A stretch of DNA of 64,000 bases from Candidatus Eiseniibacteriota bacterium (lineage in GTDB: Bacteria; Eisenbacteria; RBG-16-71-46): assembly GCA_016710095.1 (NCBI GenBank), contig JADJLL010000007.1, positions 41,122-105,121 of the forward strand. Reading direction: 5' to 3'. The notes under the pieces were generated by a model. It worked only from the letters and a program-made list of their open reading frames with translations. It had not been told where the DNA came from and ran no database searches. Made by a program: the position numbers and the translations under genes. Shown one piece after another: positions 225 to 56,865 of the stretch (position 1 is the stretch's first letter; each line of letters begins with the position of its first letter).

Positions 225-2286
225 ATGCCGTTCATGCGCGAAGAAGACCTCCTCCGATTCCGTTGGGTCGCCGATCCCCAGGTTTCGCCCGGCGGCGCCC
301 GCATCGCGTTCACGCAGGTTCACGTGGACACCGAAGCCGACGAGTACCGCACGAACCTGTGGCTGGCCGAAGTGCCGGCTGCCGGTGCTGCCGAGGACGC
401 TCCCGCACCCGCGCGGCAGTTCACGTGGGCGGGCCGCGACTCGCAGCCGCGCTGGTCGCCCGACGGCGCGACGCTCGCGTTCGTGCGCAAGCCGAACGCG
501 GACGACGCCGCGCAGATCTGCCTGCTGCCCGCGAACGGCGGTGAAGCGCGTGTGCTGACGACGCTCAAGGGTGGCGGGTCCAACCCTTGCTGGTCGCCCG
601 ACGGCACGCGCATCGCGTTCCTGTCCGGGCACAACCCGGCGATCGACACGCCCGAGTAAGAAGCCGAAGCACGAGCCTGCGCGCGTCGTGACGCGCCCGG
701 AGTTCCGTTGGAACGGCGAAGGCTTCACGGATTGGGACCACCTCGACCACGTGTGGGTCGTGGACGTCGCGAGCGGCGAGGCGCGGCAGCTGACGTGCGG
801 CACGCGCTTCAAGGAAGGCGACCTTTCGTGGTCGCCCGACGGCAAGCAGGTGCTGTTCGCGAGCGACCGCCGCGAGCAGCCGTGGTTCGGCGATCCGGCC
901 GAGGACAACGGTCTGTACGCGGTCGCGGCCGATCTCGCCGCGCCGTCCGACGGCGCCGCATTCACGCTCGTCGCGGACATCGAAGGCCCGATCGCCGGTT
1001 TCACGCCGGGGCCCGGGGGCAAGTGGCTCGCATGGGGCGGCGTGCGCCCGAAGCCCATTCGTTCGTACGACCAGAACGACGTGCTGCTGTTCGAGGGCGC
1101 GTGGCCCTTGTCGAAGCCGCGCGTGCTCACGGCGGAAAAGGACCTCGCGGTCGGTGAGACGACGTCGGGCGACATGCATCCGCCGCGCGGCGGTGGCGCG
1201 CTGCCGCTCGCGTTCACGGCGGACGGCGGCATCGTCTTCGGCTACGCGTGGCAGGGTTCGACGCGCGTCGCGCGGCTGGACCTGGGCAGCGGGGAGGTGG
1301 ACGACTTCACGCCGCCCGACTGCGACGTGTACGCGGGCACGCTGTCGGCCAACGGCCGCACGCTCGCGCTCGCGATGGGCTCGACCGGATCGCCGGGCGA
1401 CCTCTGGGTGTTCGACGTGGCGAGCGGCGAGGGCGCGTGCCTGCACACGCCGAACGCCGACCTGCTCGAGGAAGCCGGGCTCGGTGAGGTCGAGGAGATC
1501 TGGTACGACAGCTTCGACGGCAAGCGTATCCAGGGCTGGATCGTGAAGCCTCCGGGCTTCGACTCCGCGCGCAAGTATCCGCTCGTGCTGCAGATTCACG
1601 GCGGTCCGCACGTGCCGTACGGCGTCGCGTTCTTCCACGAGTTCCGCGTGCTCGCCGCGGCGGGCTACATCGTGCTGTACACGAACCCGCGCGGCTCGAC
1701 GTCGTACGGGCAGGAGTTCGGCAACTGCATCCAGTACGCGTACCCGGGCGACGACTACCACGACCTCATGGCGGGCGTGGACTTCGTGCTCGCGCGCGGG
1801 TACGTGGACGAGAAGCGCATGGGCGTCACCGGCGGCAGCGGCGGCGGCCTGCTCACGAACTGGATCGTCACGCGCAACGACCGCTTCGCGGCCGCGATCA
1901 CGCAGCGCTGCGTTTCGGATTGGGCGGGGATGTACTTCTCGTGCGATTTCGCGATGTACAACGACTCGTGGTTCAAGAGCACGCCGTGGCGTGACCGCGC
2001 GCACTACGAGTCGAAGTCGCCCGTGTGGGACCTCGACAAGGTGAACACGCCGCTGATGGTGCTCCACAGCGAAGAGGACTGGCGCACGCCGATCGCGCAG
2101 GGCGAGGCGATGTTCCGCGGCCTGCTCGCGCAGAAGAAGCCCACGGTGATGGTGCGGTTCCCGGGCGAGAGCCACGAGCTGTCGCGGAGTGGGGCGCCGA
2201 GCCGGCGCGTGCAGAACCAGCAGCACATCCGCCGATGGTTCGACCACTGGCTGCAGGGCAAGCCGGCGCCGGAGTACGGGCTCTAG
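225..2286 (+). CDS. S9 family serine peptidase (acylaminoacyl-peptidase/prolyl-oligopeptidase-like; N-terminal TolB-like beta-propeller + alpha/beta-hydrolase), interrupted by an apparent +1 frameshift near nt 657
   Basis: ORFs 225..659 (repeated WSPDG beta-propeller blades) and 571..2286 (WSPDGK blades, GGSGGG nucleophile elbow, C-terminal hydrolase) are one protein in two frames. Removing a single T at ~657 gives ...IDTPEKKPKHEPARVVTRPEFRWNGEGF, which is contiguous and protein-like. The third codon position is strongly G/C in both parts. Confidence 0.8.
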
Positions 2287-2306
2287 GGCGCGGCGCGGAA
2301 AAGCGA

Positions 2307-2346
2307 AACGGCCGGTCGGGAGTCCCGACCGGCCGTTCGACTTTTC
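2307..2346. terminator. bidirectional rho-independent terminator between convergent genes
   Basis: 14-bp perfect stem AACGGCCGGTCGGG-AGT-CCCGACCGGCCGTT followed by CGACTTTTCG on + and an A-run on the 5' side (T-run for the minus-strand gene). Confidence 0.5.
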
Positions 2347-2357
2347 GCGGATGACGC

Positions 2358-3254: not shown

Positions 3255-3583
3255 GAAGCTTCCTCCTGAGCGGATCGGCGTCCGGATCCATGGCTCGTGG
3301 GGAGCCCTGGCGGCTGGAGACGACGCATGAACGAGTGTCCGGCTGACTTTCCGAGCCCCCGGAGAGCGGAGCAGGGCACGGTGACTGGCCGGTGCACGAG
3401 CGCGGATACGCCCGCAGCGCATCTTTTCTTCCCTGAAACGTCGCCTGCGGCACGACGGTCGGCGGGCAGTGTAGTCAGAAATCGGCAGGGGTCGCACGAG
3501 GATTCATGACGTTTTTCGAACTTTGTGCGGCAAGCCGGCCGGCGCGTGCGCTCGCGAGAGGCCGTCGGCGCTGCGCCATATCA

Positions 3584-3628
3584 CCCGAAAACACGGCGCC
3601 CGCGTCCCGAGTTCCGGGGCGCGGGCGC
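3584..3628 (-). terminator. rho-independent terminator ending the apbE-rnf-kor operon
   Basis: GC-rich hairpin (GCGCCCGCG...CGCGGGCGC). On the minus strand it is followed by CGTGTTTTCGGG, immediately downstream of the korB stop. Confidence 0.5.
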
Positions 3629-6244: not shown

Positions 6245-7121
6245 TCAAGCTCCAGTCGGTTCGGCGATTTCGACCAGCTCCGGCTCGGGCGACTGCCCGA
6301 CCTTGTGCATGATCGTACTGGGACAGATGTCGGTGCAGGCCTCGCCGCAAGACGGACCGTAGGCGATGCACACCTCGTGGTCGATGAGGATCGTACGGCC
6401 GTCCCACGTGATGGCGTTGGCCGGGCACTTCGAGACGCACTTGCGGCACGTCGTGCAGCCCACCATGCAGGTGGAGCGCACCACGGACGACTTGTCCACC
6501 GCCTTGCACGAGAGCTCGATGCGCCGGGCCCGCGGGTAGAGGCGGAAGAGGTCCTTCGGGCACACCGCCACGCACACCGCGCAGCCGGTGCACTTGTCGG
6601 TGTTCACCTGCGCGATGCCGCCCGTGCCGATGAACAGCGCGTCGAACGGGCACGCGCGCACGCAGTCGCCGAGTCCGAGACAGCCGTTCTTGCACGCACG
6701 CGGGCCGCCGAAGATGAGCGCGGCCGCGCTGCAGGTCGGAATGCCGGCGTAGAGCGCTTCGTCGCGCGCGAACGCCGAGGTGCCGTGGCAGGTCATCACC
6801 ACGACGCGGTCCTCGACCCAGCCCGCGTCCTTGCCGGCCAGTTCGGCGACGGCGCGCGCGACCGGACTCGCGGCCGGGAATGCACAGGCTGGGGGAGACG
6901 TCGGCGCGTTCGACGACGGCTTCGGCGTACGCCGTGCAGCCGGCGAAGCCGCACGCGCCGCAGTTGGCCGACGGCAGCCGGTCGCGCACGCGGTCCACGA
7001 GCGGGTTGCCCGCGACCTTGAAGCGTTCCGCGGCCGCGCCGAGCGCGATGCCGAAGACGGCGCCGAGGCCGCTGAAGACGCCCAGTCCGTAGAGCGCGGT
7101 GTGCAGGGATTCGGAAGTCAT
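6245..7121 (-). CDS. rnfB: Rnf complex subunit B (Fe-S, polyferredoxin-like), with apparent 1-nt frameshift near 6870-6876
   Basis: The N-terminus (MTSESLHTALYGLGVFSGLGAVFGIALGAAAERFKV...NCGACGFAGCTAYAEAV...CIPG) is in one frame. The ferredoxin part (…ARAVAELAGKDAGWVEDRVVVMTCHGTSA...CLGLGDCVRACPFDA...CTGCAVCVAVCP...) is in the -1 frame. Removing one C in GGCCGC restores a canonical RnfB. Confidence 0.8.
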
Positions 7122-7128: not shown

Positions 7129-7995
7129 TCACCGGAAGAAGTCGAGGCCGGAGAAGCCCATGAACGCGAGCGCGAACAGTCCGGCGAGCGCGAACGCGAT
7201 GGGCAGGCCTTCGAATGCCTTGGGCACGCGCGCGAGTTCCATCTTCTCGCGGGCGCACGACATCAGGAACAGCGCGAGCGCGAAGCCGAGTCCGGAGCCG
7301 AGCGCGAGCACCAGCGCTTCGATCGCCGAGACCTTGCCCTGCGCGTTCAGGAGCGGCACGGCGAGAATGATGCAGTTCGTCGTGATGAGCATGAGGTACA
7401 CGCCGAAGCTCTTGTGGAGCGCCGGGTGCGTCTTGCGCAGCATCGTGTCGAGGAACTGCACGACCGCGGCGACCGTCCCGATGAACACGAGCACCTGCAG
7501 GAAGCCCAGGTGCAGCGGCTGCAGCGCGAACGTGTCCACGGCCCAGGACGTCATCGCGGTGAAGATCATGACCGCCGTGAACGTGACGCCCATGCCGACC
7601 GCGGCGTCGCGCTTCTTGGAGACGCCGAAGAAGATGCAGAGCCCGAGGTAGCGCGTGAACACGAAGTTGTTGATGAGCGCCGACGACAGGAACAGCGTGA
7701 CGAGCGTCGCCCACGCCGTGGGGAAGACGTCGCGCGAAATCGGCGGGTCCACGACCTCGAGCTTATAGCGCTCGGTCGCGTGCAGCGCCTGCGTCGCGGT
7801 GAGCGTCACCACGCGGCCCTCGGCCTTCACGCCTTCGAGCGCCATGGGCGCGTCGGGCGCGGCGGCTTCGGCGAAGCGGAAGTTGGCGGTCGTCGCGCCC
7901 GCGGGATCGAACGGCCCGCGGAACGTGACGCGCACCTGGTTCGGCGTGCGGATCGTGACGGACTCGATCGTGTTGCCGCCGTCGGCGGCCTGCAC
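7129..7995 (-). CDS. rnfA: Rnf complex subunit A with unusual ~95-aa N-terminal extension (possible true start at 8107 via another frameshift)
   Basis: The canonical RnfA core (…LFLSSALINNFVFTRYLGLCIFFGVSKK...) is preceded in-frame by a protein-like, high-GC3 domain (TIESVTIRTPNQVRVTFRGPFDP...KLEVVDPPI). An ATG at 8107 overlaps the rnfE stop and encodes a signal-anchor-like MAERRFPSVRTALLTALAPLALVAALLLGAAAAW in the +1 frame. Confidence 0.8.
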   Translation of the reverse strand: MQAADGGNTIESVTIRTPNQVRVTFRGPFDPAGATTANFRFAEAAAPDAPMALEGVKAEGRVVTLTATQALHATERYKLEVVDPPISRDVFPTAWATLVTLFLSSALINNFVFTRYLGLCIFFGVSKKRDAAVGMGVTFTAVMIFTAMTSWAVDTFALQPLHLGFLQVLVFIGTVAAVVQFLDTMLRKTHPALHKSFGVYLMLITTNCIILAVPLLNAQGKVSAIEALVLALGSGLGFALALFLMSCAREKMELARVPKAFEGLPIAFALAGLFALAFMGFSGLDFFR

Positions 7996-8099
7996 GGATC
8001 CGGCGCCACGCAGCAGCCGCGCCGAGCAGCAGCGCCGCGACGAGCGCCAGCGGGGCGAGCGCGGTGAGCAGCGCCGTGCGGACGGAAGGGAATCGCCGC

Positions 8100-8750
8100 T
8101 CAGCCATGGTGACCTCCGGCGGCGGGCTTCGCGGTGCCGCCCGTCAGCTTGCGTTCGAGCGCGTTGAAGAACGCCATGAGCAGCGCGATGGAGAAGAAGC
8201 CGCCCGCGGGGAGCGCGAAGAAGAGCAGCGGCTTGGTCTTGAAGAGCACGATCCCGAAGAACGAGCCCGAGCCCAGCACTTCGCGCAACGCGCCGATGAC
8301 CATGAGCGCGATCATGAAGCCGAGGCCCATGCCGACGGCGTCCCAGAACGAGGGCACCAGCGGCTGGCGCGACGCGAACACTTCGAGGCGCGAGATGATG
8401 ATCGCGAACGCCACGATGAGCTTGATGTAGAGCCCGACCTGCGCGTACAGCGACGGCGTGAACGCCGCGAGCGTCATGTCGATCGCGCTCACCCAGACGG
8501 CGATGATGATCGTGTAGACCGGGATGCGCACGCGCGGATGAATGACGCCGCGCGCGATCGCGACGGTCAGGCTGGAGAGCACCTGCACCGCGAGCACGGC
8601 GACGCCGAGGATGAAGCCGTTCGCCACGGTCGTCGTGACCGCGACGGCGGGGCAGAGGCTGAGCGCCAGGCGGAACACGGGGTTCTCGCTGACGATGCCG
8701 TTGAAGAGCAGCTGCAGGGCGCCCGGGGGGCGCTCGGTGGTCTCGCTCAT
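8100..8750 (-). CDS. rnfE: Rnf complex subunit E
   Basis: MSETTERPPGALQLLFNGIVSENPVFRLALSLCPAVAVTT... is an RnfE/NqrD-family membrane protein. Its ATG overlaps the rnfG stop (ATGA). Confidence 0.85.
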   Translation of the reverse strand: MSETTERPPGALQLLFNGIVSENPVFRLALSLCPAVAVTTTVANGFILGVAVLAVQVLSSLTVAIARGVIHPRVRIPVYTIIIAVWVSAIDMTLAAFTPSLYAQVGLYIKLIVAFAIIISRLEVFASRQPLVPSFWDAVGMGLGFMIALMVIGALREVLGSGSFFGIVLFKTKPLLFFALPAGGFFSIALLMAFFNALERKLTGGTAKPAAGGHHG

Positions 8751-29655: not shown

Positions 29656-30050
29656 GCCGAGCCTGGGACGTGCTGGTGGTGGACGACGAAGCCGTCGTGC
29701 GCGGCGGCGTGAAGCTCGTGCTCGAGCCCGAAGGACTGGCCGTCGCGCAGGCCGCGACCGTCGCCGAGGCGCTCGCGAGCGACGCCCTGAACGAATGCCG
29801 CTTGCTGCTCTGCGACCTGATGCTGCAGGGCGAGAGCGGACTCGAGGTCGTGAGCGAGGCGCGCCGCCGCCGGCCCGCGCTGCCCATCGTGCTCATGACC
29901 GGCTATGCCACCGACGACAACGCCGCCCTCGGCGCGCAGTCCGGTGCGACCGATTTCCTCGCGAAGCCTTTCGATGATGTCGAGCTGTTGGACCAGGTAC
30001 GGCGTGTCCTCGGGGATGCCCATGCCGACGAGAAGGAGGGATCGTCATGA
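29652..30050 (+). CDS. single-domain CheY-like response regulator
   Basis: GTGA overlap with the kinase stop. VLVVDDE…D-L-M-L receiver with conserved Asp (LLLCDLMLQG) and Lys (FLAKPF). Confidence 0.75.
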   Translation: MSRAWDVLVVDDEAVVRGGVKLVLEPEGLAVAQAATVAEALASDALNECRLLLCDLMLQGESGLEVVSEARRRRPALPIVLMTGYATDDNAALGAQSGATDFLAKPFDDVELLDQVRRVLGDAHADEKEGSS

Positions 30051-30102
30051 CCGCGCTTCTGGTGGTCGTGCTGTGTGTGTTGTTCCTGGGATCGAACTCG
30101 GC

Positions 30103-31194
30103 GTGCGCGCCGTGAACAAGAACCTCGAAGCCGCCCGCGTGCGGCGCGAGCGTGAAGCCGTGCTCAAGGCGCCCGTGAAGCTGGACATCGCGACCGAGAC
30201 GCCCAGCCTGCAGCGCGCCGAAGTGCCGAACGCGAAGGCCCGCATCCTCGCCGTGGACGACGAGGCGATCGTGCTCGACTCGTTCCGCAAGATCCTCGTG
30301 CTCGCCGGCTTCAGCGTGGACACCGTGAACACCGGTCCCGAGGCGCTCGCGCTCGTGCGCCAGCGCGACTACGACTTCCTGTTCACCGATCTCAAGATGC
30401 CGGTCATGGAAGGCACCGAGGTCGTGAAGGCCGTGAAGCACCTGCGTCCGGACGTGGACGTCGCCGTGATCACCGGCTTCGCCACGATCGAGACCGCCGT
30501 CGAAACGATGATGCACGGCGCGGTGGACTACGTGCAGAAGCCGTTCACGGAAGAAGAGCTCGTCGCGTTCGCGAACCGCATGTACGTGCGCCGTCAGGCG
30601 CGCATCGAGTCGCAGTCGAAGCCGGCCGTGCGCGTGGTCGCGCCCGAGCTGGTGGACATCATGGCGTCGCGTGAGTACGTCGTGCCCGGCGGCATGTTCG
30701 TGGCGACCGGCCACACGTGGGCGCGCATCGAGGACACCGGCGAAGTGTGCGTCGGCATCGACGACTTCGCGCGCAAGGCGATCGGCAAGGTCGAGCGCGT
30801 CGAGCTGCCCGCGCCCGGCACGAGCGTGAAGCGCGGCGAGGTGCTGTTCGTGGTGCGCCGCAAGGATGAGCACGTGCGCTTCCGTTCGCCCGTGAGCGGC
30901 ACGGTGACGGCGGTGAACGGCGACGTGAAGAAGGACGCCCGCGCGATGCTGGAGAGCCCGTACGAGCACGGTTGGACGTGCATGCTGCACCCGACCGACC
31001 TGACGCTCGACCTGGCAAACCTGCGCATCGGCAAGACCGTCGTGAGCTGGTACCAGGACGAGGTGACCGCGCTGCGCAAGGCGAACTCGGAAGCGACCGA
31101 CGGCGTGGTCCGCTGGTCGGCGCTCGAGGAGCGCTTCATGGGCGCCGGCGACGCCCCGCGCGAAACCACGACGGAGATCGTCGAAGTCGGGTAG
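30103..31194 (+). CDS. response regulator: receiver domain fused to a glycine-cleavage-system H-protein-like (lipoyl-carrier-fold) domain
   Basis: REC (ARILAVDDE…FLFTDLKMP…VQKPF) followed by a clear GcvH-like region (HTWARIEDTGEVCVGIDDFARKAIGKVERVELPAPGTSVKRGEVLFVV…SPVSGTVTAVNGDV). The lipoyl-Lys of the ESVKA motif is not conserved in register (VVRRKDEH). Start chosen at in-frame GTG 30103; 30112 is also possible. Confidence 0.75.
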   Translation: MRAVNKNLEAARVRREREAVLKAPVKLDIATETPSLQRAEVPNAKARILAVDDEAIVLDSFRKILVLAGFSVDTVNTGPEALALVRQRDYDFLFTDLKMPVMEGTEVVKAVKHLRPDVDVAVITGFATIETAVETMMHGAVDYVQKPFTEEELVAFANRMYVRRQARIESQSKPAVRVVAPELVDIMASREYVVPGGMFVATGHTWARIEDTGEVCVGIDDFARKAIGKVERVELPAPGTSVKRGEVLFVVRRKDEHVRFRSPVSGTVTAVNGDVKKDARAMLESPYEHGWTCMLHPTDLTLDLANLRIGKTVVSWYQDEVTALRKANSEATDGVVRWSALEERFMGAGDAPRETTTEIVEVG

Positions 31195-31282: not shown

Positions 31283-32229
31283 CTAGCGGTAGCCGGTCTT
31301 CAGTCGTCCCCACGTCGTGGTGCGCGCGGGAACGGGCCGGCCGGGGCCGGGGCCGTAGGCGCCGATCTGTCCGCCGGAGTTGCTGTACTCGTAGAAGATC
31401 GAGGCGGGGGAAAGACGGAAGTCGTTGCCGAAGGCGTCCTGGAAGAACGGGTCGAAGCCGGCGATGTGCGCTCCCATGGTCGAGCAGGTCAGTCCATTCC
31501 CTCCGCTCGACCAGATATCGCAGTAGTCCCAACTCGGGTAGCTCAGGCATCCATACCAGACCCCCACGCTTGCGATGGCGCCGTTTTGCGCAAGTCCCCG
31601 CTGCCGAAACACTCATCGCATTCGTGGCATTCCGAACCATCAGGCGCGCGATCGCATGCGGTCCGCCGCTTGCGGAGAGTCCTTGGTCCGCGTCCGCGAG
31701 TTCGCAGTCCAGAATATTGCCGCCGTGTTGCGAGTCGATACAGATCTGCGACGCGGAGATGCTGGACTCGAGGACGCTGCCGCTTCCCACCAGAACGAGC
31801 CCCTTGCGCGGTCCATGAACTGAGAGCTTCCGCAGGGAGGCGGCCCCGCTGCCTTCCATTCGAATTTGTCCCCATTCGCCGAAGCCAGAAGTCCAGAACC
31901 GAATGCTGTCGGCGACCGATCCGTCGGCGACGAGCGAGCCGAACACACTGAGCTCGGAGAGGTTCGGGAACTCCCCACCATGCAGCGTGTCGTGATCGGC
32001 TTGAAGTAGACCAGCACGCCCGGCTCGATCGTGAGCGTGGCGCCGGGGTTGACCACCACGTCGCCTTGCACGAAGTACATGGGACCGGGGTAGGCGTAGG
32101 TCAGCGTGCGATTGCCGTTGATGAAGCCGTAGAGCTTGTTGCTGTTCGGGTCGACGGCGGCGTTCGCCACGCTCGAACAGAGCACGAACAGGAGCAGTGC
32201 AGCACCGAGTCGGGGTAGCCAGTTCCGCA
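31283..32229 (-). CDS. secreted right-handed beta-helix (pectate-lyase-fold-like) protein ending in TTTWGRLKTGYR, disrupted by at least two frameshifts (~32000 and ~31615)
   Basis: N-terminal signal peptide (MRNWLPRLGAALLLFVLCSSVANA) in one frame. Beta-helix repeats (…GSVLESSISASQICIDSQHGGNILDC…) in a second frame. C-terminal ~110 aa in a third frame ending …ARTTTWGRLKTGYR. Confidence 0.45.
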
Positions 32230-32336
32230 TGGGAATACTCCAAAGGCGAGAGGTGGCGGGGGAAATCACGCGCAGACTATCGATCGCCGTGGCCGTCCGC
32301 ACCGGGCCAGAAGTAGGCCGCGCAGCGCTGAGAAGT

Positions 32337-36539: not shown

Positions 36540-38129
36540 ATGGATTCGCGAATCATCGAGGCGGCGCGCACCGCCTTCCGCTCGAATGGCTCCACGCTCA
36601 CCCTCGGCGCGCTCGTGCATGCCGGAGAATGCAATGCCGAGCCGCTCGCCGCATTGCCGCTCGCCATGGCGAACCGCCACGGGCTGATCGCCGGCGCGAC
36701 CGGAACGGGCAAGACCAAGACGCTCCAGCTGCTCGCCGAGCAGTTCTCCGCGGCGGGCGTCCCGGTCTTCCTCGCCGACCTGAAGGGCGACCTCTCGGGG
36801 CTCTCCATGCCCGGCGAGGCGAGCGAGCGCGTGAACCAGCGCGCGAAGGACACGGGCTACTCGTGGAAGGCGGGCGGCTGCCCGGTCGAGTACCTGAGCC
36901 TCACCGGCAAAGGCGGCGCCCAGCTGCGCGCGACGGTGTCGTCGTTCGGTCCGCTGCTGCTCTCGCGCGTGCTCGGGCTCAACGACACGCAGACGAGCGT
37001 GCTCTCGATGGTGTTCAAGTACGCCGACGACCAGAAGCTCGCGCTGCTCGACCTGGCGGACCTGCGCGCGGTGCTTCAGTACCTGAGCGGTGACGGCGCC
37101 GAGGAACTCGCGAACTACGGCGGCATGAGCAAGGCGAGCGTCGGCGTGCTGCTGCGCGAGATGGTCGAGCTGGAACAGCAGGGCGCGGGCGCGTTCTTCG
37201 GCAATCCCGAGTTCGACCTCGACGACCTGCTCGCGGTGAAGGACGGCAAGGGGCTCGTGAGCGTGCTCCAGCTGCGCGACGTGCAGGACAAGCCCGGGCT
37301 CTTCTCGACGTTCATGATGTGGATGCTCGCGCGGCTCTACCACGAACTGCCCGAAGTCGGCGATGTGGACAAGCCCAAGCTCGTCTTCTTCTTCGACGAA
37401 GCGCACCTGCTGTTCGACGACGCGAGCAAGGAGTTCCTCGACCAGGTCGAGCAGGTCGTGCGGCTCATTCGCTCGAAGGGCGTCGGCGTGTGGTTCGTCA
37501 CGCAGAGCCCGAAGGACGTGCCGGCCGACATCCTCGGCCAGCTCGGCAACCGCGTGCAGCACGCGCTGCGCGCGTTCACGCCGGACGACGAGAAGGCGCT
37601 GCGCGCCGCCGCGCGTACGTTCCCGAAGACCGACTTCTACGACGTCGAGGAGATCCTCACCACGCTCGGCATCGGCGAGGCGTTCGTCACGGTGCTCGCG
37701 CCCAACGGCGCGCCGACCCCGCCGTTCGCCGTGCGCATGATTCCGCCGGCGTCTCGCATGGGTCCGCTCAGCGAAGGTGAGCTGGTGAGCGCGCTCGCTG
37801 CATCCGAGCAGGTGCGCGAGTACGCGGTGGCCGAGGATCGCGACAGCGCTCGCGAAGCGCTCGCGCGGCGCATGGCCGGTGACTCGGCGGCCGCGGCCCC
37901 GGTGGCACCTGCCGCTCCCGTGCAGCCGTCCGGAGTGCCGCCCGTGGCCGAACAGCAGCCCGATCCGGGCGCGCGCGCGGCCGAAACGGTGGCGGGCGCG
38001 GCAGCCATGGTCGGCGCGGCGCTCAACTCGCCCGTCGGCCGTCAGGTGGCGCGCACACTCGTAAGCACAGTGACGCGCGGTCTGCTCGGAGCGCTTCTGG
38101 GTTCACCGCCACGGCGCCGACGCCGATAG
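36540..38129 (+). CDS. DUF853-family P-loop NTPase (YjgR/HerA-FtsK-clade helicase-like ATPase) with Pro/Ala-rich C-terminal tail
   Basis: Walker A GATGTGKT, Walker B VFFFDEAH, overall YjgR-like organisation. GGAGG RBS. ~110-aa low-complexity tail (…AAAPVAPAAPVQPSGVPPVAEQQPDP…) ending just before the poly-G block. Confidence 0.8.
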   Translation: MDSRIIEAARTAFRSNGSTLTLGALVHAGECNAEPLAALPLAMANRHGLIAGATGTGKTKTLQLLAEQFSAAGVPVFLADLKGDLSGLSMPGEASERVNQRAKDTGYSWKAGGCPVEYLSLTGKGGAQLRATVSSFGPLLLSRVLGLNDTQTSVLSMVFKYADDQKLALLDLADLRAVLQYLSGDGAEELANYGGMSKASVGVLLREMVELEQQGAGAFFGNPEFDLDDLLAVKDGKGLVSVLQLRDVQDKPGLFSTFMMWMLARLYHELPEVGDVDKPKLVFFFDEAHLLFDDASKEFLDQVEQVVRLIRSKGVGVWFVTQSPKDVPADILGQLGNRVQHALRAFTPDDEKALRAAARTFPKTDFYDVEEILTTLGIGEAFVTVLAPNGAPTPPFAVRMIPPASRMGPLSEGELVSALAASEQVREYAVAEDRDSAREALARRMAGDSAAAAPVAPAAPVQPSGVPPVAEQQPDPGARAAETVAGAAAMVGAALNSPVGRQVARTLVSTVTRGLLGALLGSPPRRRRR

Positions 38130-38139
38130 AAGAGAGCAC

Positions 38140-39950
38140 GAGCGGTGTGGGGCGGTCGGGGCGCCCGCGCCCGGGGCGCACCCGGGGCGGGGGCACGCGC
38201 CGCCCCCGCCGACGACGGCCGCCCGCGGCGACGCGGACCAAAGCCACGCGCGGCGCCCCCCGGGGGCCGGCCCGCCGGCAACCCGCGCGCGGCCGCCCGG
38301 GGGGGGGGAGGGGGGGGGTTCGGCGCCCGACGTCCCGGGGGGGGCCCGCCCGACTTCCGGCCGGGGGGAACCCGCGCCGTTCGGGTCGCGGGGCCAGACA
38401 CGGCCGCGACCGCGCACCGGGGGGGGGGGCCGGGGCGGGCAGGGGGGCCGGGCCGTTCCCCGGGCCTCAAGCAAGGGGATGTTGTTGTTCAGCGAGCGGG
38501 GTTGGGGACACCCGCCCGCACCCGCCTCGCGCCCGCGGGGGGCAGGTTTCCGGGGCTTCCGGAGGGCGGGGGGCTGGGCGCGGGGGGTTGCCCCGCCCCG
38601 CGCCAGCCCGCGGGGGAGACGGGGGGCCTTCGGCGCCGCCCGGGCCGCCGGCGCCGGGGCGCACGCGCACGGGGGGGGCCGGGCGGGGGGGGGGTTGGCG
38701 AAGTCTGGGGGGGGCCCGGGCCCCGGGGGTTCACCGTCGGGGGGGGGGGTTCGCACAGACGTTGGGGCTAGCCCCGGGGGGGCGGGCACTGCCACCCACA
38801 CCGCCGCGAAGAAAAAGCGTTCGCCCGCACGCCCACCGGATTCGAAACGGGAGGGGAGGGGACGTTGCTCGGGGGGGCGCCCGGGGAAGCCTTCAGGCCT
38901 TCGGGGGGGCGCCCTACGACCCCCGCGTTGCCCGGGCGCACCGAGTCGCCGGGGCGCCACGACGCCGGATCGGGGGGGCGCCCGGGCCCGGCCCCGGGGG
39001 GGGCTCGGCGGGGGGCCGCCCGGCAGGGGGCGGGGCGACCTGAGCGCGTACTACCCCCGTTCGCGCTGGGTGGGAAACGCGGCGACCGCGCCCCGGGGGG
39101 GGGGGGGGGGCCAGGGGGGCCCCCCGGGGGGGGGGGAAGGGGTGGTCGGCGGGGCGCCCCGCAGCCTGGGCTGGGGGGGAGGGGGGGACGGGGAGCGATT
39201 TCGGGGAGGAGCCCGACGCGGGGAGGGATTTCGCCCGCACGCCGCAACTGTCGCCACCGGCGGAGGGGGCTGGGGCGGGGGCCCCCGCCCGGGGAGCAGA
39301 AGCGCAACCACCCCACGCCCGCACCCGAACACGACGCCCCCCCGGGCGGGCCGCCCCCCAGGGCCCTTCCAGGCTGACGACGGCCCGCTTCAAAAGCGCC
39401 GCGGACGGGGACAACACGAGCCCGCCGGGGGCGTACTACCCCGCCGACAAGACGGTCGATCGGGAGCGGGGGGGGGGCGTCCCGGACCCCGGGCCGGGGC
39501 GGGGGACCAACCCCCCGAGGAAAAAGACTGACCAGCCGAAGACGGCCTTCGAACGTCACCGCGAAGTCGATGGCGGGGCGAAGACGGCACGGGGGGGGGG
39601 ATTTGGGGGCCTGACGCCAGCGCGGGGGGGGGATGATCACGCGCCGGGGGGTTGTTGGTTGAACAGCTGGGGGGGGGGCGGGGGGGGGGGGGACCAGGGG
39701 CGGGGGGGGGAGAAGCTCCGGGGGAAGCCCGGGTACTGGGGGCAACGGGGAGGGGGAGGACGCTGGGGGGGGGGGCAGGGGAGGGGGAACGGGAAGGGAA
39801 ACTGGGGACGCCTCGGGGCCCGAGGGGGAGGGGGGGGCCGGGGACGCGCCCGACCCGGGGGGGGAGGGGGGGGCGCCGGGCCGGAAATCCGCTTCCGCCG
39901 AGTCTCTTCGGCCGGCGCGAGTTGACGATGCCGCCGTTGCTGGTGTAGAA
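38140..39950. repeat. 1.8-kb G-homopolymer-rich low-complexity block (G runs of 7-15 nt, strong G-over-C skew on + strand), most likely assembly/base-calling artefact
   Basis: Dozens of runs like gggggggggg interspersed with short normal-looking fragments. All six frames give only G/P/R-rich translations. No counterpart elsewhere except nt 1-150. Confidence 0.6.
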
Positions 39951-40759: not shown

Positions 40760-41377
40760 TCAAAGCACCGTGCGGTTCGAGCTCTTCACGACCGGCTCGG
40801 ACGGCTCCGGTTCCGGCGCGGGCTCGGCGCACAACGAGTCGATCGCCGCGCGCGTCGCGCTCGAGAGCCACTCGATCTCGCCCGCCTGCTTCGCCGCCAC
40901 GCGGCCCGAGCGATCGATCACGTAGGTGTACGGGATGCTCGGGCAGGGCAGACCCGCCGCGAGGTCCTTGCGCAGGTCGAGCAGCACCGGCAGCCGGAGC
41001 CGCATGCGCCCCACGTAACGCGAGACGCTCGGGAACGGATCGAAGCACACGAGCGCGACCTCGACCGCTCCGGGCGGCAGCGACCGTCGCAGCGAGTCGA
41101 GCGTCGTCGCCTGCGGGCCGGAGTGCCGCATCCACGGCGCCCAGTATTCGACGATCAGCACGCGCTGCCCCGGGACGAGCCGGCGCACGCCGACGGGCAC
41201 CATCGGCAGGGAAGCGTCGAAGGCCGCCGCCGGGCGATCCGCGGCGGGGGTGAGCGCGAGCGGTGTGGGTGTGGCGCCGGTGCGCTGCACGGTGAACAGC
41301 TCCGCCTTCCAGACGAGCGTGCCGAGCACTGCGAGCGCGGCGAGTCCGAGCAGGAGCGTGCGGACGCGCGGGGTCAT
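40760..41377 (-). CDS. TlpA/redoxin-like thioredoxin-fold protein lacking the CXXC motif, translationally coupled to cstA
   Basis: Signal-anchor MTPRVRTLLLGLAALAVLGTLVW. Thioredoxin-fold region with WAPWMRHS at the position of the redoxin WCxxC. GGGAG RBS. ATGA overlap with the cstA stop. Confidence 0.55.
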   Translation of the reverse strand: MTPRVRTLLLGLAALAVLGTLVWKAELFTVQRTGATPTPLALTPAADRPAAAFDASLPMVPVGVRRLVPGQRVLIVEYWAPWMRHSGPQATTLDSLRRSLPPGAVEVALVCFDPFPSVSRYVGRMRLRLPVLLDLRKDLAAGLPCPSIPYTYVIDRSGRVAAKQAGEIEWLSSATRAAIDSLCAEPAPEPEPSEPVVKSSNRTVL

Positions 41378-43223
41378 CGTGCGGCTCCCGCGTCGAGCGC
41401 GCCGGAAGGCTGCGCCTCGCCACGGACGTGCGACCACCAGTGCCGCGCGCAGTCGCCGACGATCACGACCATGAGCGCCATCACGACGAGCGTGACGACG
41501 CACTGGATGCGCGCGGGCGTGGGCGCGGCGGCGAACGCCGACCACAGGTCCGGCGCGCCGGCGGCGAGCGGGCCGCGCAGGTAGTTGAGCGACAGGTTGA
41601 GCCAGCCCGCGACGAGAGTGTTCGCGCACATGAACGCGAGCGGCACGAGCGTCGCCCATGTGTAGCGCGCGCGACCGTGGTTCACCATCCACGACGTCGC
41701 GATCGCGAGCGCGATGGCCGCGAGCAGCTGGTTCGCCACGCCGAGCAGCGGCCACACGGTGGTCACCGTGCCCGTCCACACGAAGTAGCCCCACGCGCAC
41801 ACCGACAGCGCGCTGAACACCGCCGCGGGCGCGAAGCCCGTCCAACCGCGAAGCTTCGGGAACGCCATGCTGCCGACCTCCTGGAACATGTAGCGCGTGA
41901 CTCGCGTGCCCGTGTCGATCAGCGTCATGACGAACATGGCTTCGAACATGATGACGAAGTGGTACCAGAAGCTCATGAGCCCGCCCAGCGCGGGCAGCTT
42001 CGAGAAGATCTGCGCCATGCCGACCGCGAGCGACACGGCGCCGCCGGGCCGTCCGGTGATGTTCTCGCCGACCTGCGCCGAGAGCGCCTGCAGGTGCACG
42101 GGCGTCAGGCCGAGCTTGGCGAACACTTCGGGCTTCGTGTTGATCGCGAAATAGTCGGCGGGCTCGAGCGAGCACGCGGCGACGAGCGCGATGATGCCGA
42201 CGAAGCCCTCGAGCAGCATGGCGCCGTACGCGACCGGGAGCATGTCGCGCTCGCGTTCGACCATCTTGGGCGTCGTGCCGGATGCGATGAGGGAGTGGAA
42301 GCCGGAGATCGCGCCGCACATGATCGTGATGAAGACGAACGGGAACATCGGTCCGGGAATCACGGGGCCGCCGCCGTGCACGAACGGCGTGAACGCCGGC
42401 ATGCGCAGCTAGGGTTCACGAGCAGCACGCCGGCGGCGAGCACGAGCATCGCGCCGATCTTGAGGAAGCTCGACAGGTAGTCGCGCGGGCAGAGCAGCAG
42501 CCACACGGGTAGCACCGACGCGATGAAGCCGTACGCCATGAGCGCGATCGTGAGCTGGCGGTCGGAGAACATGAGGAACGGCCGCAGCGCCGAGTCGTGC
42601 ACCCACGCGCCGCCCGCGACGGCGAGCACGAGCGCCACGACGCCGAACGTCGTCGCGGTCTTCACCGCGCCGGGCCGGATGCGGTACGTGAAGAGTCCCA
42701 TCACGAGCGCGATCGGTATCGTGCAGCCGATCGAGAACACGCCCCACGCGCTGTCGCGCAGCGAACTCACGACCACGAGCGCCATCGCGGCGAGCGCGAC
42801 CACCATCACGAACACGATCGCGATACTCGTCGCCGCGCCGGTGAGCGGGCTCACCTGCTCGCGCGCGATGTTCGCGAGCGAGCGCCCGCCGCTGCGCACG
42901 CTCGCCGTGAGGATGACGAAGTCGTGCACGCCGCCCGCGATCACCGAACCGAGCAGCAGCCACAGGAAGCCGGGCGCCCATCCGAACTGCGCGGCGAGCA
43001 CGGGGCCGAGCAGCGGACCGGCGCCGGAGATCGCGGCGAAGTGATGGCCGAAGAGCACCCAGCGTTTCGTGGGCACGTAGTCGTGGCCGTCGCGCGAGGT
43101 GTGCGCGGGCGTCGCGCGCAGGTCGTCGAGCGTGGCGACGCGGGCGGCGAGGAACACGCCGTAGGTGCGATAGGCGATGACCGCGATGAGCGCGGCGCAC
43201 GCGACCAGGTAGAGCGCGGGCAA
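41374..43223 (-). CDS. cstA: carbon starvation protein A (peptide/pyruvate transporter family), with apparent 1-nt deletion frameshift near 42411-42416
   Basis: N-terminal ORF (…GHHFAAISGAGPLLGPVLAAQFGWAPGFLWL…) and C-terminal ORF (MPAFTPFVHGGGPVIPGPMFPFVFITIMCGAISGFHSLIASGTTPKM…) are contiguous CstA sequence in two frames. Inserting one base after CCT restores …VNP-x-LRMPAF…. TTG start. Confidence 0.8.
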
Positions 43224-45387: not shown

Positions 45388-47373
45388 ATGGGAATGGCTT
45401 CGCATGGCGTCGTGGCGCGCGCGCGTGCTAGCGTGCCCGCCGTGACTTCCGACACTTCTCCCGGCGCCCCGACGGGGCCGCGCCCCTCGACCGAACATTC
45501 ACTGCCTCGCATCTCCGCCCAGTCGCTGCTCGGCCCGGAGGGCGTGAGCGGGACCGCTCATTTCCACGACCTGCTGCGCTCGGCGACCCGCCAGTGCCGC
45601 AAGCTCGTGGACTGCGAGCAGGTCCGTCTCTGGGTTGCCCGCCGTGGCGGCCGCCGGCTCGTGGCGCGCGACTTTCCCGAGGAAAATCCGGGAGCGCAGC
45701 CCCAGGAGCACCGCCTGCCCCGTGGCGAAGGTGTCGCGGGATGGGTGATGACGCACCAGCGCACGCTGCGTCTCGGCGCGGGCGACGTCCTGCCGGACGA
45801 CGTGAAGGGCGCGCGCACGCCGTTCCGCAGCGCGCTCGTGATTCCGCTGCTGCGCCGCGGCGAGCCGTTCGGCGCGATCGAGTGCCTCGACAAGCGCGGC
45901 GGTGATTTCACCGACGCCGATTTCGACCGGCTCGAAGTGGCCGCCGAGAGCGTCGCGTTCGCGCTCGACTACGCGCTGCTGTACCAGGAGATCGAACGGC
46001 GCGCGCTCGAGAAGGAAGTGCTGCTCGACATCACGCGCGCGCTCGCGTCGCCCTTCGATCTCGAGGAAGTGATCGAGGAGATCTTCAAGTCGCTGCGCCA
46101 GGTCGTGGACTACGACGCGGCCGCGATCTACCTCGTGCAGCGCGGCACCGGCGTGCTCGAGATGGTGAGCGAGCACGGCTACCCGACGGGCTCGGAGCAC
46201 GCGTTCGAGCTGCAGATGGGGCAGGGCATCGTCGGCTGGGTCGCGAAGACGGGCGAGAGCGTGATCGTGCCCGACGTGAGCACGGACAAGCGCTACGTCG
46301 CCGCGCGGCCGCAGACGCGCAGCGAGATCGCGACGCCGCTCATGCTGCAGGGCCGCGTGTTCGGCGTGTTCAACCTCGAGAGCGAGCACGTGGACGCGTA
46401 CCACGAAGGCCACCTCGAGATGCTCGCCGCGTTCGCGGCGCAGGCCGCCGTCGCGGTCGAGCGCGCGCGTTCGGCGCGTGACCTCATGGAGCGCCGCCGG
46501 CTCGAGAAGGAACTCGCCATCGCGCGCGAGATCCAGAAGTCGTTCCTGCCCGCGGGCGCGCCGATCATTCCCGGCTTCGACCTCGCCGGCACGTCCATCA
46601 CGCACGACGAGGTGGGCGGCGACTACTTCGACTTCATTCCCGTGTCCGAAACGCGGCTCGGTCTCGCCGTGGCGGACGTGTCGGGCAAGGGCATTCCCGC
46701 GGCGCTGCTCATGGCCGGTTTCCGCATGAGCCTGCTCGCCGAGATCCGCAACGAGTTCGCGATCCGCGCCGTCATGCGCAAGGCGAACAGCCTGCTGCAC
46801 GAGAGCACCGAGCGGGACAAGTTCGTCACCGCCTTCTACGGCGTGCTCGACTGGCGGAACAGCATCCTCATCTTCAGCAACGCGGGGCACAATCCGCCGC
46901 TGGTCATGCACCGCGACGGCACCACCGAGCACCTGCTCGACGGTGGCCTCGCGCTCGGCGTGCTGCCGGATTCGAGCTACGAGGAGCGCCCGATCGCGCT
47001 GCGCGAGGGCGACGTGCTCGTGTTCTACACGGACGGCGTCTCCGAGGCCGAGAACGAGCACGGCGAGCAGTTCGGGGAGGAGCGCCTCGAGCAGGTCGCG
47101 CGCGAGAACGCCGACCGGCCCGCCGCCGACCTCCTGGCCGCCATCGTGGACGCCGTGGTCGTGTGGACGGGGGAGCGCGGTCCGAGCGACGACCTCACCC
47201 TGATCGTCGTCCGGAAGACCGGCCCGACCCCTGAGGGCGGCCGGCTGGCGGCATGCCCCCGGCCCGGTGACGCCGTCGCGGCACCGCACTCCGCGCGGCA
47301 TCGGAACTCCAACTCGAAGTTCAAGCATTACTTGAAGCGCGTCATTCTTGACCGCTCCAAACGCGTTCGATAG
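45388..47373 (+). CDS. GAF-GAF-PP2C (SpoIIE/RsbU-type) serine/threonine phosphatase
   Basis: Two GAF-like regions (…GVAGWVMTHQRTLRL…, …GIVGWVAKTGESVIVPDVSTD…), then a PP2C domain (…GGDYFDFIP…ADVSGKGIPAALLM…FYTDGVSEA…). Start ambiguous (TTG 45379, ATG 45388 or 45394). Confidence 0.8.
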   Translation: MGMASHGVVARARASVPAVTSDTSPGAPTGPRPSTEHSLPRISAQSLLGPEGVSGTAHFHDLLRSATRQCRKLVDCEQVRLWVARRGGRRLVARDFPEENPGAQPQEHRLPRGEGVAGWVMTHQRTLRLGAGDVLPDDVKGARTPFRSALVIPLLRRGEPFGAIECLDKRGGDFTDADFDRLEVAAESVAFALDYALLYQEIERRALEKEVLLDITRALASPFDLEEVIEEIFKSLRQVVDYDAAAIYLVQRGTGVLEMVSEHGYPTGSEHAFELQMGQGIVGWVAKTGESVIVPDVSTDKRYVAARPQTRSEIATPLMLQGRVFGVFNLESEHVDAYHEGHLEMLAAFAAQAAVAVERARSARDLMERRRLEKELAIAREIQKSFLPAGAPIIPGFDLAGTSITHDEVGGDYFDFIPVSETRLGLAVADVSGKGIPAALLMAGFRMSLLAEIRNEFAIRAVMRKANSLLHESTERDKFVTAFYGVLDWRNSILIFSNAGHNPPLVMHRDGTTEHLLDGGLALGVLPDSSYEERPIALREGDVLVFYTDGVSEAENEHGEQFGEERLEQVARENADRPAADLLAAIVDAVVVWTGERGPSDDLTLIVVRKTGPTPEGGRLAACPRPGDAVAAPHSARHRNSNSKFKHYLKRVILDRSKRVR

Positions 47374-54238: not shown

Positions 54239-54336
54239 CGAGCCGCACTCCTAACCTGCCGCGCACGAAATCCAAGCCTGCGCGGCAAGCGGGACGGCAT
54301 TTCGATCACACATCCGGAGCCCACACGAGGAACTGC

Positions 54337-55458
54337 ATGACGCGCTTGTTCGCCCGTGTTTTCGCGGTCGCCGCTGTCGCCGCCGTGCTCGCGTCACCCG
54401 CGAGCGCCACCAAGTACGCCGGCGAGTTCATGAAGATCCCGGTCGGCGCGCGCGCCGTGGGCATGGGCAGCGCGTTCACCGCGGTCGCCGACGACGCCAC
54501 CTCGCCGTACTGGAACCCCGCGGGCATGGTGTACCTGCCGTATCGCGAGGCGTTCCTCCAGCACGCCGAGCAGTTCGGCTCGCTCGTCAATCACGACTTC
54601 GGCGGCGTCGTCATGCCGCTCAAGACCACCGAGGATCACCGCGCCGCGATCGGCGTCGCGCTCACCTGGGTGGGCGTCACCGACATTCCGATCACGCCGC
54701 GGCCGGGTGGTCTCGCGCCGGGGCAGTGGCTCGACTACGGCACGGACAACGATCCGAGCACGCCCGACGCGGACGGCACGCAGGGCAACGGCAAGTGGGA
54801 CCGCGGCGAGCGCCTGCTGCTGAGCGCCGAGGACCTCTACATGGCGAGCAGCACCGACCTCGCGCTGCAGGTCTCGTACGCCCAGCAGCGCGGACGGCAC
54901 TGGGCGTTCGGCGGCACGGTGAAGTTCGTCCGCCAGAGCATTCCCGACTCGGTGTTCGCCGAGCACGCGACCAGTTTCGGCGCGGGCCTCGACGCCGGCG
55001 CGATCTACATGGTCAACGATGCCGTCACGCTCTCGGCCGTCATGCACGACCTCACGACCACGTACATCAGCTGGAACAGCGGCGTGCGCGAGTTCGTCGC
55101 GCCGACGATGGTGACCGGCTCGAGCTTCAACTTCTCGCCCGCGCCCAACCAGGCGCTGACGTGGGCGGTGGATCTCGGCTGGAACTTCGAAGGGCGGAAG
55201 TTCGACAGCCAGGTCAAGATGGGCCCGGTCACCGCGGACCTGCACACCGGTCTCGAGTACTGGTATCGCAGCACGCTCGCGCTGCGCAGCGGGCTTTCCG
55301 GCAAGGACCTCACGTTCGGCGCCGGCGTGCGCTACCGCCATTTCGGCGTGGACTACGCTGCGTCGCTCAACCGGTTCTTCGCGGCGGACGACCCGAACTT
55401 CCCGGACGACAAGAACCTCGACGCGACCCATCTCGCATCGGCGTCGTTCAGCTGGTGA
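54337..55458 (+). CDS. FadL/PorV-like outer-membrane beta-barrel protein
   Basis: Signal peptide, then KIPVGARAVGMGSAFTAVADDATSPYWNPAGM (the N-terminal signature of FadL/PorV/UPF0164-type barrels). C-terminal aromatic residue (…SFSW). GAGGAA RBS. Confidence 0.6.
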   Translation: MTRLFARVFAVAAVAAVLASPASATKYAGEFMKIPVGARAVGMGSAFTAVADDATSPYWNPAGMVYLPYREAFLQHAEQFGSLVNHDFGGVVMPLKTTEDHRAAIGVALTWVGVTDIPITPRPGGLAPGQWLDYGTDNDPSTPDADGTQGNGKWDRGERLLLSAEDLYMASSTDLALQVSYAQQRGRHWAFGGTVKFVRQSIPDSVFAEHATSFGAGLDAGAIYMVNDAVTLSAVMHDLTTTYISWNSGVREFVAPTMVTGSSFNFSPAPNQALTWAVDLGWNFEGRKFDSQVKMGPVTADLHTGLEYWYRSTLALRSGLSGKDLTFGAGVRYRHFGVDYAASLNRFFAADDPNFPDDKNLDATHLASASFSW

Positions 55459-55608
55459 GTTGACCGCTTACTCGACGCGCCCGCGAGCCACCCGCTCGCG
55501 GGCGTTCTCGTTTCGGGGCTTCGCCTTGACCGCGCTTCGCGCCAGTCATTAGTGTGCGAGCGCGTGTTTCAGCGGCTTTCCGAACGATCTCAGGGAGAGT
55601 GGTTCGCG

Positions 55609-56865
55609 ATGCGAAACGTGATGGCGTTGATCCTGTCCGGCGGCGGAGGAGAGCGCCTCGGCGTACTCTCGGCCGAGCGCGCGGTGAGTGCCTTGCCGTT
55701 CGGCGGCAAGTATCGCGTCATCGATTTCTCGCTGAGCAACTGCTGCCATTCGGGCATCGGCCAGGTCGGCGTGCTCGCGCAGCATGCGCCGGCTTCGCTC
55801 AACGATCACATCGGCGCGGGACGCCCGTGGGACCTCGACCGCCGCCAGGGCGGCGTCGTCATCCTGCAGCCGTACCAGACGCGCTCTCACGCGGGCTGGT
55901 ACCGCGGAACGGCCGACGCGATCACGCAGAACTGGAGCTACCTCGAGGAGCGCCGTCCCGAGCGAGTGCTCGTGCTGTCGGGCGATCACGTCTATCGCAT
56001 GGACTATCGCGCGCTGTTCCTGGCGCACGAGCAGCGCGGCGCGGCGGTGACGCTCGCCGTGCACGCGGGTGCCGTCCGACCAGACGCGGCGCTTCGGCAT
56101 GGTGACCATGGACCGCGGCGGCCGCGTGCGCACGCTCGAGGAGAAGCCCGAGCGCAGCGCCGCCACGCACGCCTCGATGGGCATCTACGTGTTCGAGTTC
56201 GAAGTGCTCGGCGAAATGCTGCGCACGCGCCCGGTGGATCTCGTGCTCGACGTGCTGCGTCCGCTCGTGGACGCGGGCGAGCGCGTGTACGCGCACGAGT
56301 TCAACGGCTTCTGGGAAGACGTCGGCACCGTGGCGTCGTACTACCGCGCGAGCATGGAACTCGTGCAGCCCGAGCCGCGCTTCCAGCTGCACGACGTTCG
56401 CTGGCCGATCCTCACGCGCGACGAAGAGCGTCCCGCGGCGATCGTCTCGGGCAACGCGCAGATCGAGGACAGCCTGATCGCGAACGGCTGCCGTATCGAT
56501 GGGCAAGTGCAGCGCTCGATCCTGTTCCCGGGCGTCTCGGTCGGACGCGGCGCCACGATCACCGACGCCGTCGTCATGGCGGACACCGTGATCGAGCCGG
56601 ACGCGCGCATCGACCGCGCGCTGCTCGACAAGTACGTGCGTGTGGGAGAGGGCGCGATCGTCGGCGACGGCGAGGAGCGCGGCCCGAGCGAACTGTCGTG
56701 GCTCTCGAACCTCGTGCTCGTGGGCAAGGACGCGTGGATCCCGCCGGGCGGCCGCGTGATGCGCCCCGCGCAACTGGGCGTCGGCGGACGTTACGAAGAC
56801 TTCGTGGACGGTGTCGTGCCTTCGGGCACGCTGGTCGGGAACCGCCGTTGGTTCGAGGAGCTGCG

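Follow-up and report, generated by a model that had tools for sequence, protein, structure and literature searches.

Frame breaks in conserved genes of a Candidatus Eisenbacteria contig: probable indel errors of the consensus

Programmed frameshift genes, such as prfB (+1), dnaX (-1), and those of the IS3 transposases, have conserved slippery sites and stimulators that are kept across orthologues. Decaying genomes, such as those of Mycobacterium leprae and recently host-restricted symbionts, present nonsense mutations, raised dN/dS, deletions, IS expansion, and breaks that are common to relatives. In addition, many purported bacterial pseudogenes are assembly artifacts, which depend on the platform, the assembler, and the coverage (Cooley & Wright 2024, PMC11017572), and metagenome-assembled genomes (MAGs) obtained with nanopore reads show frameshift pseudogenes in excess, an effect that is stronger when coverage is low (Cusco et al. 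2021, PMC8103633).

Here, we analyzed a stretch of 64,000 nucleotides (the window) from the genome of an uncultured Candidatus Eisenbacteria bacterium. The window resembles spurious, assembly-error pseudogenes (PMC11017572, PMC8103633) in that small indels split conserved genes and are private to one assembly, and in that the defect is indel-specific, with normal substitutions, and can be mended by a frameshift-aware comparison with orthologues. It differs from the usual spurious pseudogenes in that its indels lie outside homopolymers, two of them are dinucleotide deletions, and a kilobase-scale corrupted stretch occurs besides the sporadic indels. As in decaying genomes, several genes are frameshifted within tens of kilobases, yet nonsense mutations, raised dN/dS, IS expansion, and breaks common to relatives are all missing. 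As in programmed frameshift genes, one protein is spread over two frames, but with neither a motif nor conservation.

Frame breaks in seven conserved genes

The original prediction held that six genes (S9 peptidase, rnfB, rnfA, a beta-helix gene, cstA, and glgC-1) are each split across frames by single-nucleotide indels. Pfam matches to the separate halves and alignments confirmed the six splits at or near the predicted positions. More specifically, alignment to close relatives (Candidatus Eisenbacteria MAGs with 85–94% DNA identity) revealed eight firm break events in seven genes, the seventh being a REC/GCV_H gene broken at 30092; a further break at 47229 is possible. Five of the eight are 1-nt indels (6864, 30092, 32003, 42411, and 56062), two are 2-nt deletions (658 and 8013), and the remaining one (~31590, in the beta-helix gene) is a net loss of ~314 nt. 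The single-nucleotide description thus holds for 4 of the 7 events originally listed and fails for 658 and 8013 (2 nt each) and for ~31590 (net -314 nt). The splits are not due to chance: the coordinates on the Pfam profiles are contiguous, and the E-values lie between 1e-11 (the 83-aa FeS domain of rnfB) and 1e-104 (cstA). A comparison with orthologous loci, as had been proposed, uncovered a single intact ORF in every relative at genes where the window shows two or three frames. Once the minimal indel was mended, cstA, glgC-1, rnfB, rnfA, the S9 peptidase gene, and the REC/GCV_H gene each encoded a full-length protein that matches its orthologues exactly in length and aligns with them collinearly.

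The S9 prolyl-oligopeptidase-family gene (225..2286, + strand) carries a 2-nt deletion at ~658 that converts GAGTACAAGAAG into GAGT--AAGAAG and thereby creates a TAA. Its PD40/DPPIV_N domains were found by Pfam in 150-656 and its Peptidase_S9 domain in 559-2283. The gene is a single ORF of ~700 codons in L001, L002, and L003, and the 2 nt lost at 658 are present in five relatives.

Two further breaks fall in an Rnf operon of the rnfCDGEAB type, in which all six subunit families occur in one cluster (RnfC, RnfD, RnfG with FMN_bind, RnfE, RnfA with Rnf-Nqr, and RnfB with FeS and Fer4), with ApbE upstream; RnfE was assigned by its position and its sequence similarity to RnfA. In rnfB (6245..7121, - strand), an additional coding-strand C at 6864 puts the Fer4 domains (frame of 6245-7117) out of register with the FeS domain (PF04060, frame of 7121-6872). 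This base is absent from eight relatives, and rnfB is a single ORF in L001 and L002. The rnfA gene (7129..8107, - strand) has an N-terminal extension composed of a signal peptide and an Ig-like (Big_5-like) region, and Pfam returned an Rnf-Nqr match plus a weak Big_5 match. A 2-nt deletion at ~8013 cuts the signal peptide off from the remainder, and in all five relatives compared the gene is one ORF, reading M..ERR..ALAPLALVAALLLGAP..VQAADGGN...

The REC and GCV_H-like response regulator gene with an N-terminal TM helix (30047..31194, + strand) bears a 1-nt deletion at ~30092, a break that the first reading of the sequence had missed. It shifts the first 15 codons (MTALLVVVLCVLFLG) into a different frame, so that the two parts lie in frames 30047 and 30049; the L052 orthologue (MTALLVVVLCVLFLGIELAVRAVNK...) is one ORF. 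We also considered 29652-30050 and the next ORF as a single split NtrC-like gene. This candidate was rejected, as the receiver domain is complete in each, making them separate genes, and the true break lies at 30092, inside the second one.

Downstream of a tRNA-Leu, the gene for a secreted beta-helix protein (31283..32230, - strand) contains two events, a 1-nt deletion at ~32003 and the net loss of ~314 nt at ~31590. Ten homologues each match frames -1, -3, and -1 in turn, residues ~215-317 being left without a match, and ~104 residues are absent relative to all 10. DNA alignment to L057 revealed one G missing in the window, and in its central region the L057 gene exceeds that of the window by 314 nt. 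This large loss could be a genuine deletion, and it sits in a tRNA-adjoining variable island. The beta-helix gene of L052 was rejected as an orthologue; since the locus is a variable island, the two genes are not homologous.

In the carbon starvation protein A gene, cstA (41374..43223, - strand), a 1-nt deletion at ~42411 changes CCT AAG to CCTAG. Positions 2-274 of the CstA Pfam profile match in the frame of 42360-43271(-) and positions 273-560 in that of 41374-42408(-); the gene is intact in L053 (616 aa) and L052 (620 aa). The glucose-1-phosphate adenylyltransferase gene, glgC-1 (55609..56869, + strand), has an inserted base that had been placed inside a GGG run. DNA alignment to L055 and L056 located it elsewhere, as a C at 56062, outside the run, that turns GTG-ACG into GTGCACG. 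The NTP_transferase profile is matched from 2 to 140 in the frame of 55552 and from 135 to 242 in 56051-56869 (Pfam). With one base removed, glgC-1 encodes 419 aa, which is the family length and that of more than 100 homologues, and the repaired protein is 97% identical to P0121/P0122 over its full coverage.

Corrupted stretches

The original prediction also warned that other ORF boundaries might be wrong, and this proved justified by the break at 30092, the possible one at 47229, and a corrupted stretch at 38126..39914 (+ strand). The latter is the remnant of a gene for a 660-690-aa membrane protein. It has 80% GC and 36 G-runs of at least 6 nt, the longest of 16 nt, and its commonest substitution is C-to-G. 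A tblastn search with the relatives' 660-aa protein against 38-40 kb gave no match, and the collinear remnant emerged only when the nucleotide sequences were aligned leniently, reversed and shuffled sequences serving as controls. Under these settings, the stretch is collinear with and ~58% identical to the membrane-protein gene of L053 and L052, with full-length alignment scores of 173 and 148 bits, respectively, vs 44-52 bits for the controls; the L053 gene occupies 3188-5176. At the same site, the same-species contig L054 (97.6% identical; ENA assembly ERZ23795167) has a normal gene start, MKARLAAWVAPVGAAMLAL. No known mutational process produces a poly-G wreck of this kind.

A second junk-like patch lies at the window edge (1..127), where we found C9 and G6 runs, in a segment too short for a significance test. 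Collinearity with L001 begins only at 128.

Selection, substitutions, and the origin of the breaks

None of the same genes is frameshifted in L001-L005, L052, L053, L055, or L056, and none of the eight firm events occurs in those relatives whose sequence spans the sites (L001-L008, L052, L053, L055, and L056), which places all of the events on the window lineage. Downstream of the breaks in the S9 peptidase gene, rnfB, rnfA, cstA, and glgC-1, dN/dS amounts to 0.055-0.19, compared with 0.05-0.19 in intact neighbors. Such low values at a dS of ~0.2-0.37 indicate that both halves have been under purifying selection throughout. There were no nonsense substitutions in any gene, as opposed to 8 frameshifts, nor was there an excess of private substitutions (94 N / 290 S in the window vs 81 N / 257 S in the L001 lineage). 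The defect is indel-specific, and substitution levels are normal. The one same-species contig found, L054, is short, and its span lies outside all small indel sites. An exact-protein look-up of OFOR alpha, RnfE, and REC found no exact same-species copies on record, and JGI metagenomes yielded no hit to an exact 29-mer beside the cstA site.

The original prediction attributed the breaks to indel error in the consensus or assembly, and our data back this explanation: the breaks are private and spread across unrelated genes with no motif in common, dN/dS is low, nonsense mutations are missing, and a corrupted stretch lies on the same contig. The breaks, their nature, their absence from relatives, the missing decay signature, and the 1.8-kb corruption were observed directly; for their cause, we infer that an indel-prone consensus or assembly, locally of very low quality, very probably produced both the breaks and the corrupted stretch, the genes being intact in the organism. 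One observation speaks against technical error, as indels outside homopolymers of at least 4 nt and two 2-nt deletions are atypical of long-read or 454/Ion homopolymer errors. More specifically, homopolymers of this length were found at none of the firm indel sites, where the longest run within 5 nt is 2-3.

This placement outside homopolymers would suit genuine, very recent pseudogenization by inactivating indels, such as could arise in a population that is deficient in mismatch repair or has passed through a bottleneck. So would the one large deletion, since loss within a variable island flanked by a tRNA gene is typical of real decay. We nevertheless consider such a history unlikely, since selection is not relaxed downstream of any tested break, nonsense mutations number 0 against 8 frameshifts with a normal substitution load, and two subunits are hit in an otherwise perfectly conserved rnfCDGEAB operon. 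In addition, decay leaves the 1.8-kb poly-G wreck without a biological explanation, and L054 shows the normal start of the gene there. If the small indels were real, a possibility to which we give slightly less weight still, the inactivating frameshifts in Rnf subunits, CstA, GlgC, an S9 peptidase, and others would have been acquired in far less time than it took the nearest sampled strain to diverge by 2-3%. They would then point to a lineage just entering genome decay, as a mutator or after a bottleneck, or, alternatively, to an unknown tolerance of frameshifts.

A chimeric consensus, in which the assembler joined strain variants with natural indel polymorphisms, or collapsed bubbles, and so made frame breaks that no individual genome carries, would likewise be an artifact, though one of strain mixing instead of read error, and it seems improbable to us. 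Every relative is a MAG, so the window evidently stems from a metagenome, and it diverges abruptly from the same-species L054 left of 34481, a hint of strain-level mosaicism. Natural indel polymorphisms in coding DNA come in multiples of 3, however, and stitching gives no +1, -1, or -2 change within otherwise identical codon contexts; it also leaves the poly-G stretch unexplained.

Programmed recoding, be it ribosomal frameshifting or transcriptional slippage that expresses the split genes as full-length proteins, can be dismissed almost entirely: in every gene the two halves are open and conserved, but a slippery heptamer, homopolymer, or shared motif is absent at every site, the shifts are mixed in sign and size (+1, -1, -2), and no relative retains them, all orthologues being single-frame, whereas known programmed frameshifts are conserved among orthologues.

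Under the preferred reading of consensus error, the assembled genome would retain uncorrected small indels at about 1 per 6-8 kb of coding sequence and would include at least one stretch of very low quality. The apparent pseudogenes (S9 peptidase, rnfB, rnfA, REC/GCV_H, beta-helix, cstA, and glgC-1) would then be products of sequencing or assembly. We infer a long-read platform, with a low-depth or unpolished long-read assembly, or a long-read gap fill, as the most plausible source of error. As the breaks are almost certainly sequencing or assembly mistakes, they constitute a data-quality problem and no discovery, and neither pseudogenes nor recoding should be claimed from them. Until the contig is polished, gene calls, completeness estimates, and metabolic inferences drawn from it are unreliable, including whether the organism has a functional Rnf complex, makes glycogen, and takes up peptides. 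Besides the wrongly split genes, the 660-aa membrane-protein gene is missing from the contig. The assembly, if public, would make pseudogenes seem more numerous than they are and introduce truncated proteins into databases.

Doubtful and rejected sites

Frameshifts were also suspected at 3314, 3352, and 3438, where L001 and L002 both differ from the window. These were rejected because a PPC-domain gene, with its conserved start and signal peptide, begins only downstream of the sites, which are therefore in non-coding DNA.

The possible 1-nt deletion at ~47229 in the GAF-SpoIIE phosphatase gene (45544..47373, + strand) is based on L053 only; the difference is not polarized, so natural variation may account for it. 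It lies two codons before the native stop and makes the ORF overrun into the next gene, by ~46 codons, and the longest homopolymer within 5 nt of it is 4. In the RluB-like gene, a possible frame switch at ~52860 falls in a repeat-rich tail, where all frames stay open because of a 45-nt tandem repeat.

Frame breaks in the window

Frames in the window (GC content ~70%) were mapped from GC3 and codon usage by Viterbi segmentation, and the resulting ORFs were scanned against Pfam. The resulting map comprises an S9 peptidase, a PPC-domain protein, 2-oxoacid:ferredoxin oxidoreductase (OFOR) subunits, the rnfCDGEAB operon with apbE ahead of it, a second OFOR cluster, cytochrome c7/Fer4/NrfD genes, a histidine kinase and two receiver proteins, a beta-helix protein adjoining tRNA-Leu, a HerA-like ATPase, DUF6580, cstA, a T2SS/T4P ATPase, GAF-SpoIIE, an aminoacyl-tRNA synthetase, scpAB, and two glgC paralogues, among others. 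A search with the OFOR alpha subunit against species-representative genomes assigned the window to Candidatus Eisenbacteria, and contigs of related members served as comparison DNA. L001 and L002 are collinear with positions 128-16276 and 128-8962, respectively (91% DNA identity), and L003-L005 are 80-85% identical to the window. Further relatives (L052-L057) were obtained through protein searches and then exact look-ups: L052 (85%) and L053 (90%) around HerA and cstA, L055 (86%) and L056 (94%) around glgC, and L057 for the beta-helix gene.

The original prediction that six genes are split over frames was borne out for each of them by Pfam halves, relatives' ORFs, or homologue alignments. More specifically, CstA profile positions 2-274 and 273-560 lie in different frames, as do NTP_transferase positions 2-140 and 135-242 of glgC-1 and the N-terminal FeS and Fer4 domains of rnfB. 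When relatives' ORFs for the S9 peptidase, rnfB, cstA, and glgC-1 were used as tblastn queries, each matched two adjacent window frames. All five relatives join a signal peptide and an Ig-like domain to RnfA within one ORF; the window's signal peptide, MAERRFPSVRTALLTALAPLALVAALLLGA, is out of frame with LLRGAGSVQAADGGN... For the beta-helix protein, 10 of 10 homologues match frames -1, -3, and -1.

The description of these events as single-nucleotide changes holds for four of seven: an extra C at 6864 (rnfB), an extra C at 56062 (glgC-1, GTGACG to GTGCACG), and the loss of 1 nt at 32003 (beta-helix gene) and at 42411 (cstA, CCT AAG to CCTAG). Two nucleotides were lost at 658 (S9 peptidase, GAGTACAAG to GAGT--AAG) and at 8013 (rnfA), and at ~31590 the window is 314 nt shorter than L057, with ~104 residues of the beta-helix protein missing relative to all homologues. 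The glgC-1 break had been placed inside a GGG run; the extra C sits outside it, and none of the seven events lies in a homopolymer of at least 4 nt. This lack of homopolymer association is atypical of classic long-read errors.

We also found an additional firm break at 30092, where a 1-nt deletion in the response-regulator gene REC/GCV_H (30047-31194, plus strand) cuts the N-terminal TM helix MTALLVVVLCVLFLG off from the remainder of the protein. A further break is possible at 47229, just ahead of the GAF-SpoIIE stop, as judged from one relative. Indels at 3314, 3352, and 3438 were rejected as frameshifts, all being upstream of a start codon, and the neighbouring receiver genes proved to be two separate genes rather than one split gene.

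A corrupted stretch beside the HerA-like gene

The 1.8 kb of the window that separate the HerA-like gene from tRNA-Ala (38126-39914) have 80% GC, a strong G skew, and 36 G-runs of at least 6 nt, the longest being 16. At this position, relatives carry an intact membrane-protein gene of 660-690 aa. In a lenient nucleotide alignment, the stretch proved to be a copy collinear with that gene over its full length, with an identity of only ~58% and scores of 173 and 148 bits versus 44-52 for reversed or block-shuffled controls; C-to-G is the most frequent substitution. The short-read contig L054 matches window positions 34481-38130 at 97.6% identity with zero gaps, so the two represent the same species. 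In L054, the HerA stop runs directly into a normal membrane-protein gene start, MKARLAAWVAPVGAAMLAL, where the window sequence is garbage. Positions 1-127 resemble this stretch, being rich in homopolymers (C9, G6); collinearity with L001, which has ordinary coding sequence there, begins only at 128. Positions 1-127 are possibly a second low-quality patch running past the window edge.

Sequence agreement between the window and L054 (1-258) breaks off abruptly to the left of 34481, a sign of a strain-level difference or of a junction. Within 34270-36495, L054 shares with the window two minus-strand genes of unassigned function (34345-34905 and 34916-36256) that L052 and L053 lack.

Assembly error versus gene decay

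Comparison with orthologous loci found the relatives covering the broken genes to be without frame breaks in all cases, i.e., eight firm events on the window's lineage versus none in the same genes of those relatives, and intact window genes gave one-frame matches everywhere. We consider genuine recent pseudogenisation quite improbable: downstream of the tested breaks, dN/dS is 0.055-0.19 (dS, 0.2-0.37), the same as in intact neighbours (0.05-0.19), and no gene carries a nonsense substitution. Repaired glgC-1 encodes exactly 419 aa, as in >100 homologues, with 97% identity to the best. With L003 as the outgroup for polarising private substitutions, the window has 94 non-synonymous and 290 synonymous changes, comparable to the L001 lineage (81 and 257); the defect is confined to indels. 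Programmed recoding is excluded, since no shared sequence motif was found among the break sites and the shifts vary in both sign and size.

Collectively, the asymmetry, the lack of a decay signature, the indel-specific defect, the lack of a motif, and the corrupted stretch, which is the strongest of the five lines, point to an artefact and support the original reading of an indel-prone assembly. Uncorrected indels would be scattered sporadically through the consensus, at about one per 6-8 kb of coding sequence, alongside patches of very poor quality. This reading is consistent with reports that many purported bacterial pseudogenes are artefacts varying with assembler, platform, and coverage (PMC11017572) and that nanopore MAGs show an excess of frameshift pseudogenes, above all at low coverage (PMC8103633). 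The frame breaks are very probably not a biological feature, and every ORF boundary in the contig calls for caution.

The tRNA-Leu island and other genes

Downstream of tRNA-Leu(CAA) (32337-32425) lies a variable island (31189-32336) that hosts the ~316-aa beta-helix gene in the window and unrelated genes in L052 (5152-8036). The 420-aa homologue in L057 is 95% identical to the window at the N terminus, nearly 100% at the C terminus, and ~50% in the centre, which suggests a secreted protein family with conserved termini and a hypervariable centre. Given this variability and the island setting, the ~314-nt loss could be a genuine deletion.

RnfA of this Eisenbacteria clade (7129-8107, minus strand; 8098-9114 in L001; equivalents in L002-L005) has an unusual architecture, in which a ~100-aa Ig-like domain (weak Big_5 match) is fused to the Rnf-Nqr membrane core behind a conserved signal peptide or TM helix at the N terminus. 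Upstream of the PPC-domain gene, ~390 nt of non-coding sequence (3256-3645) is conserved in L001 and L002 except for small indels; it had no Rfam match at gathering thresholds and may represent a long leader or a regulatory RNA. In the histidine kinase (27742-29655, plus strand), ~200 residues separate the HisKA and HATPase_c matches, the latter starting at profile position 36. This spacer looks like a real insertion, since the L052 orthologue is almost equally long (638 versus 637 aa).

The RluB-like pseudouridine synthase ORF (51218-53467, 749 aa) has a long C-terminal tail with a 45-nt tandem repeat (52895-53142; 4.8 copies, 97% identical) and a frame switch at ~52860, past which the coding frame is ambiguous. 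The adjacent glgC paralogues (55609-58143, plus strand) encode 419 aa (glgC-1, repaired) and 425 aa (glgC-2), and conservation of the pair in L055 suggests a two-subunit ADP-glucose pyrophosphorylase.
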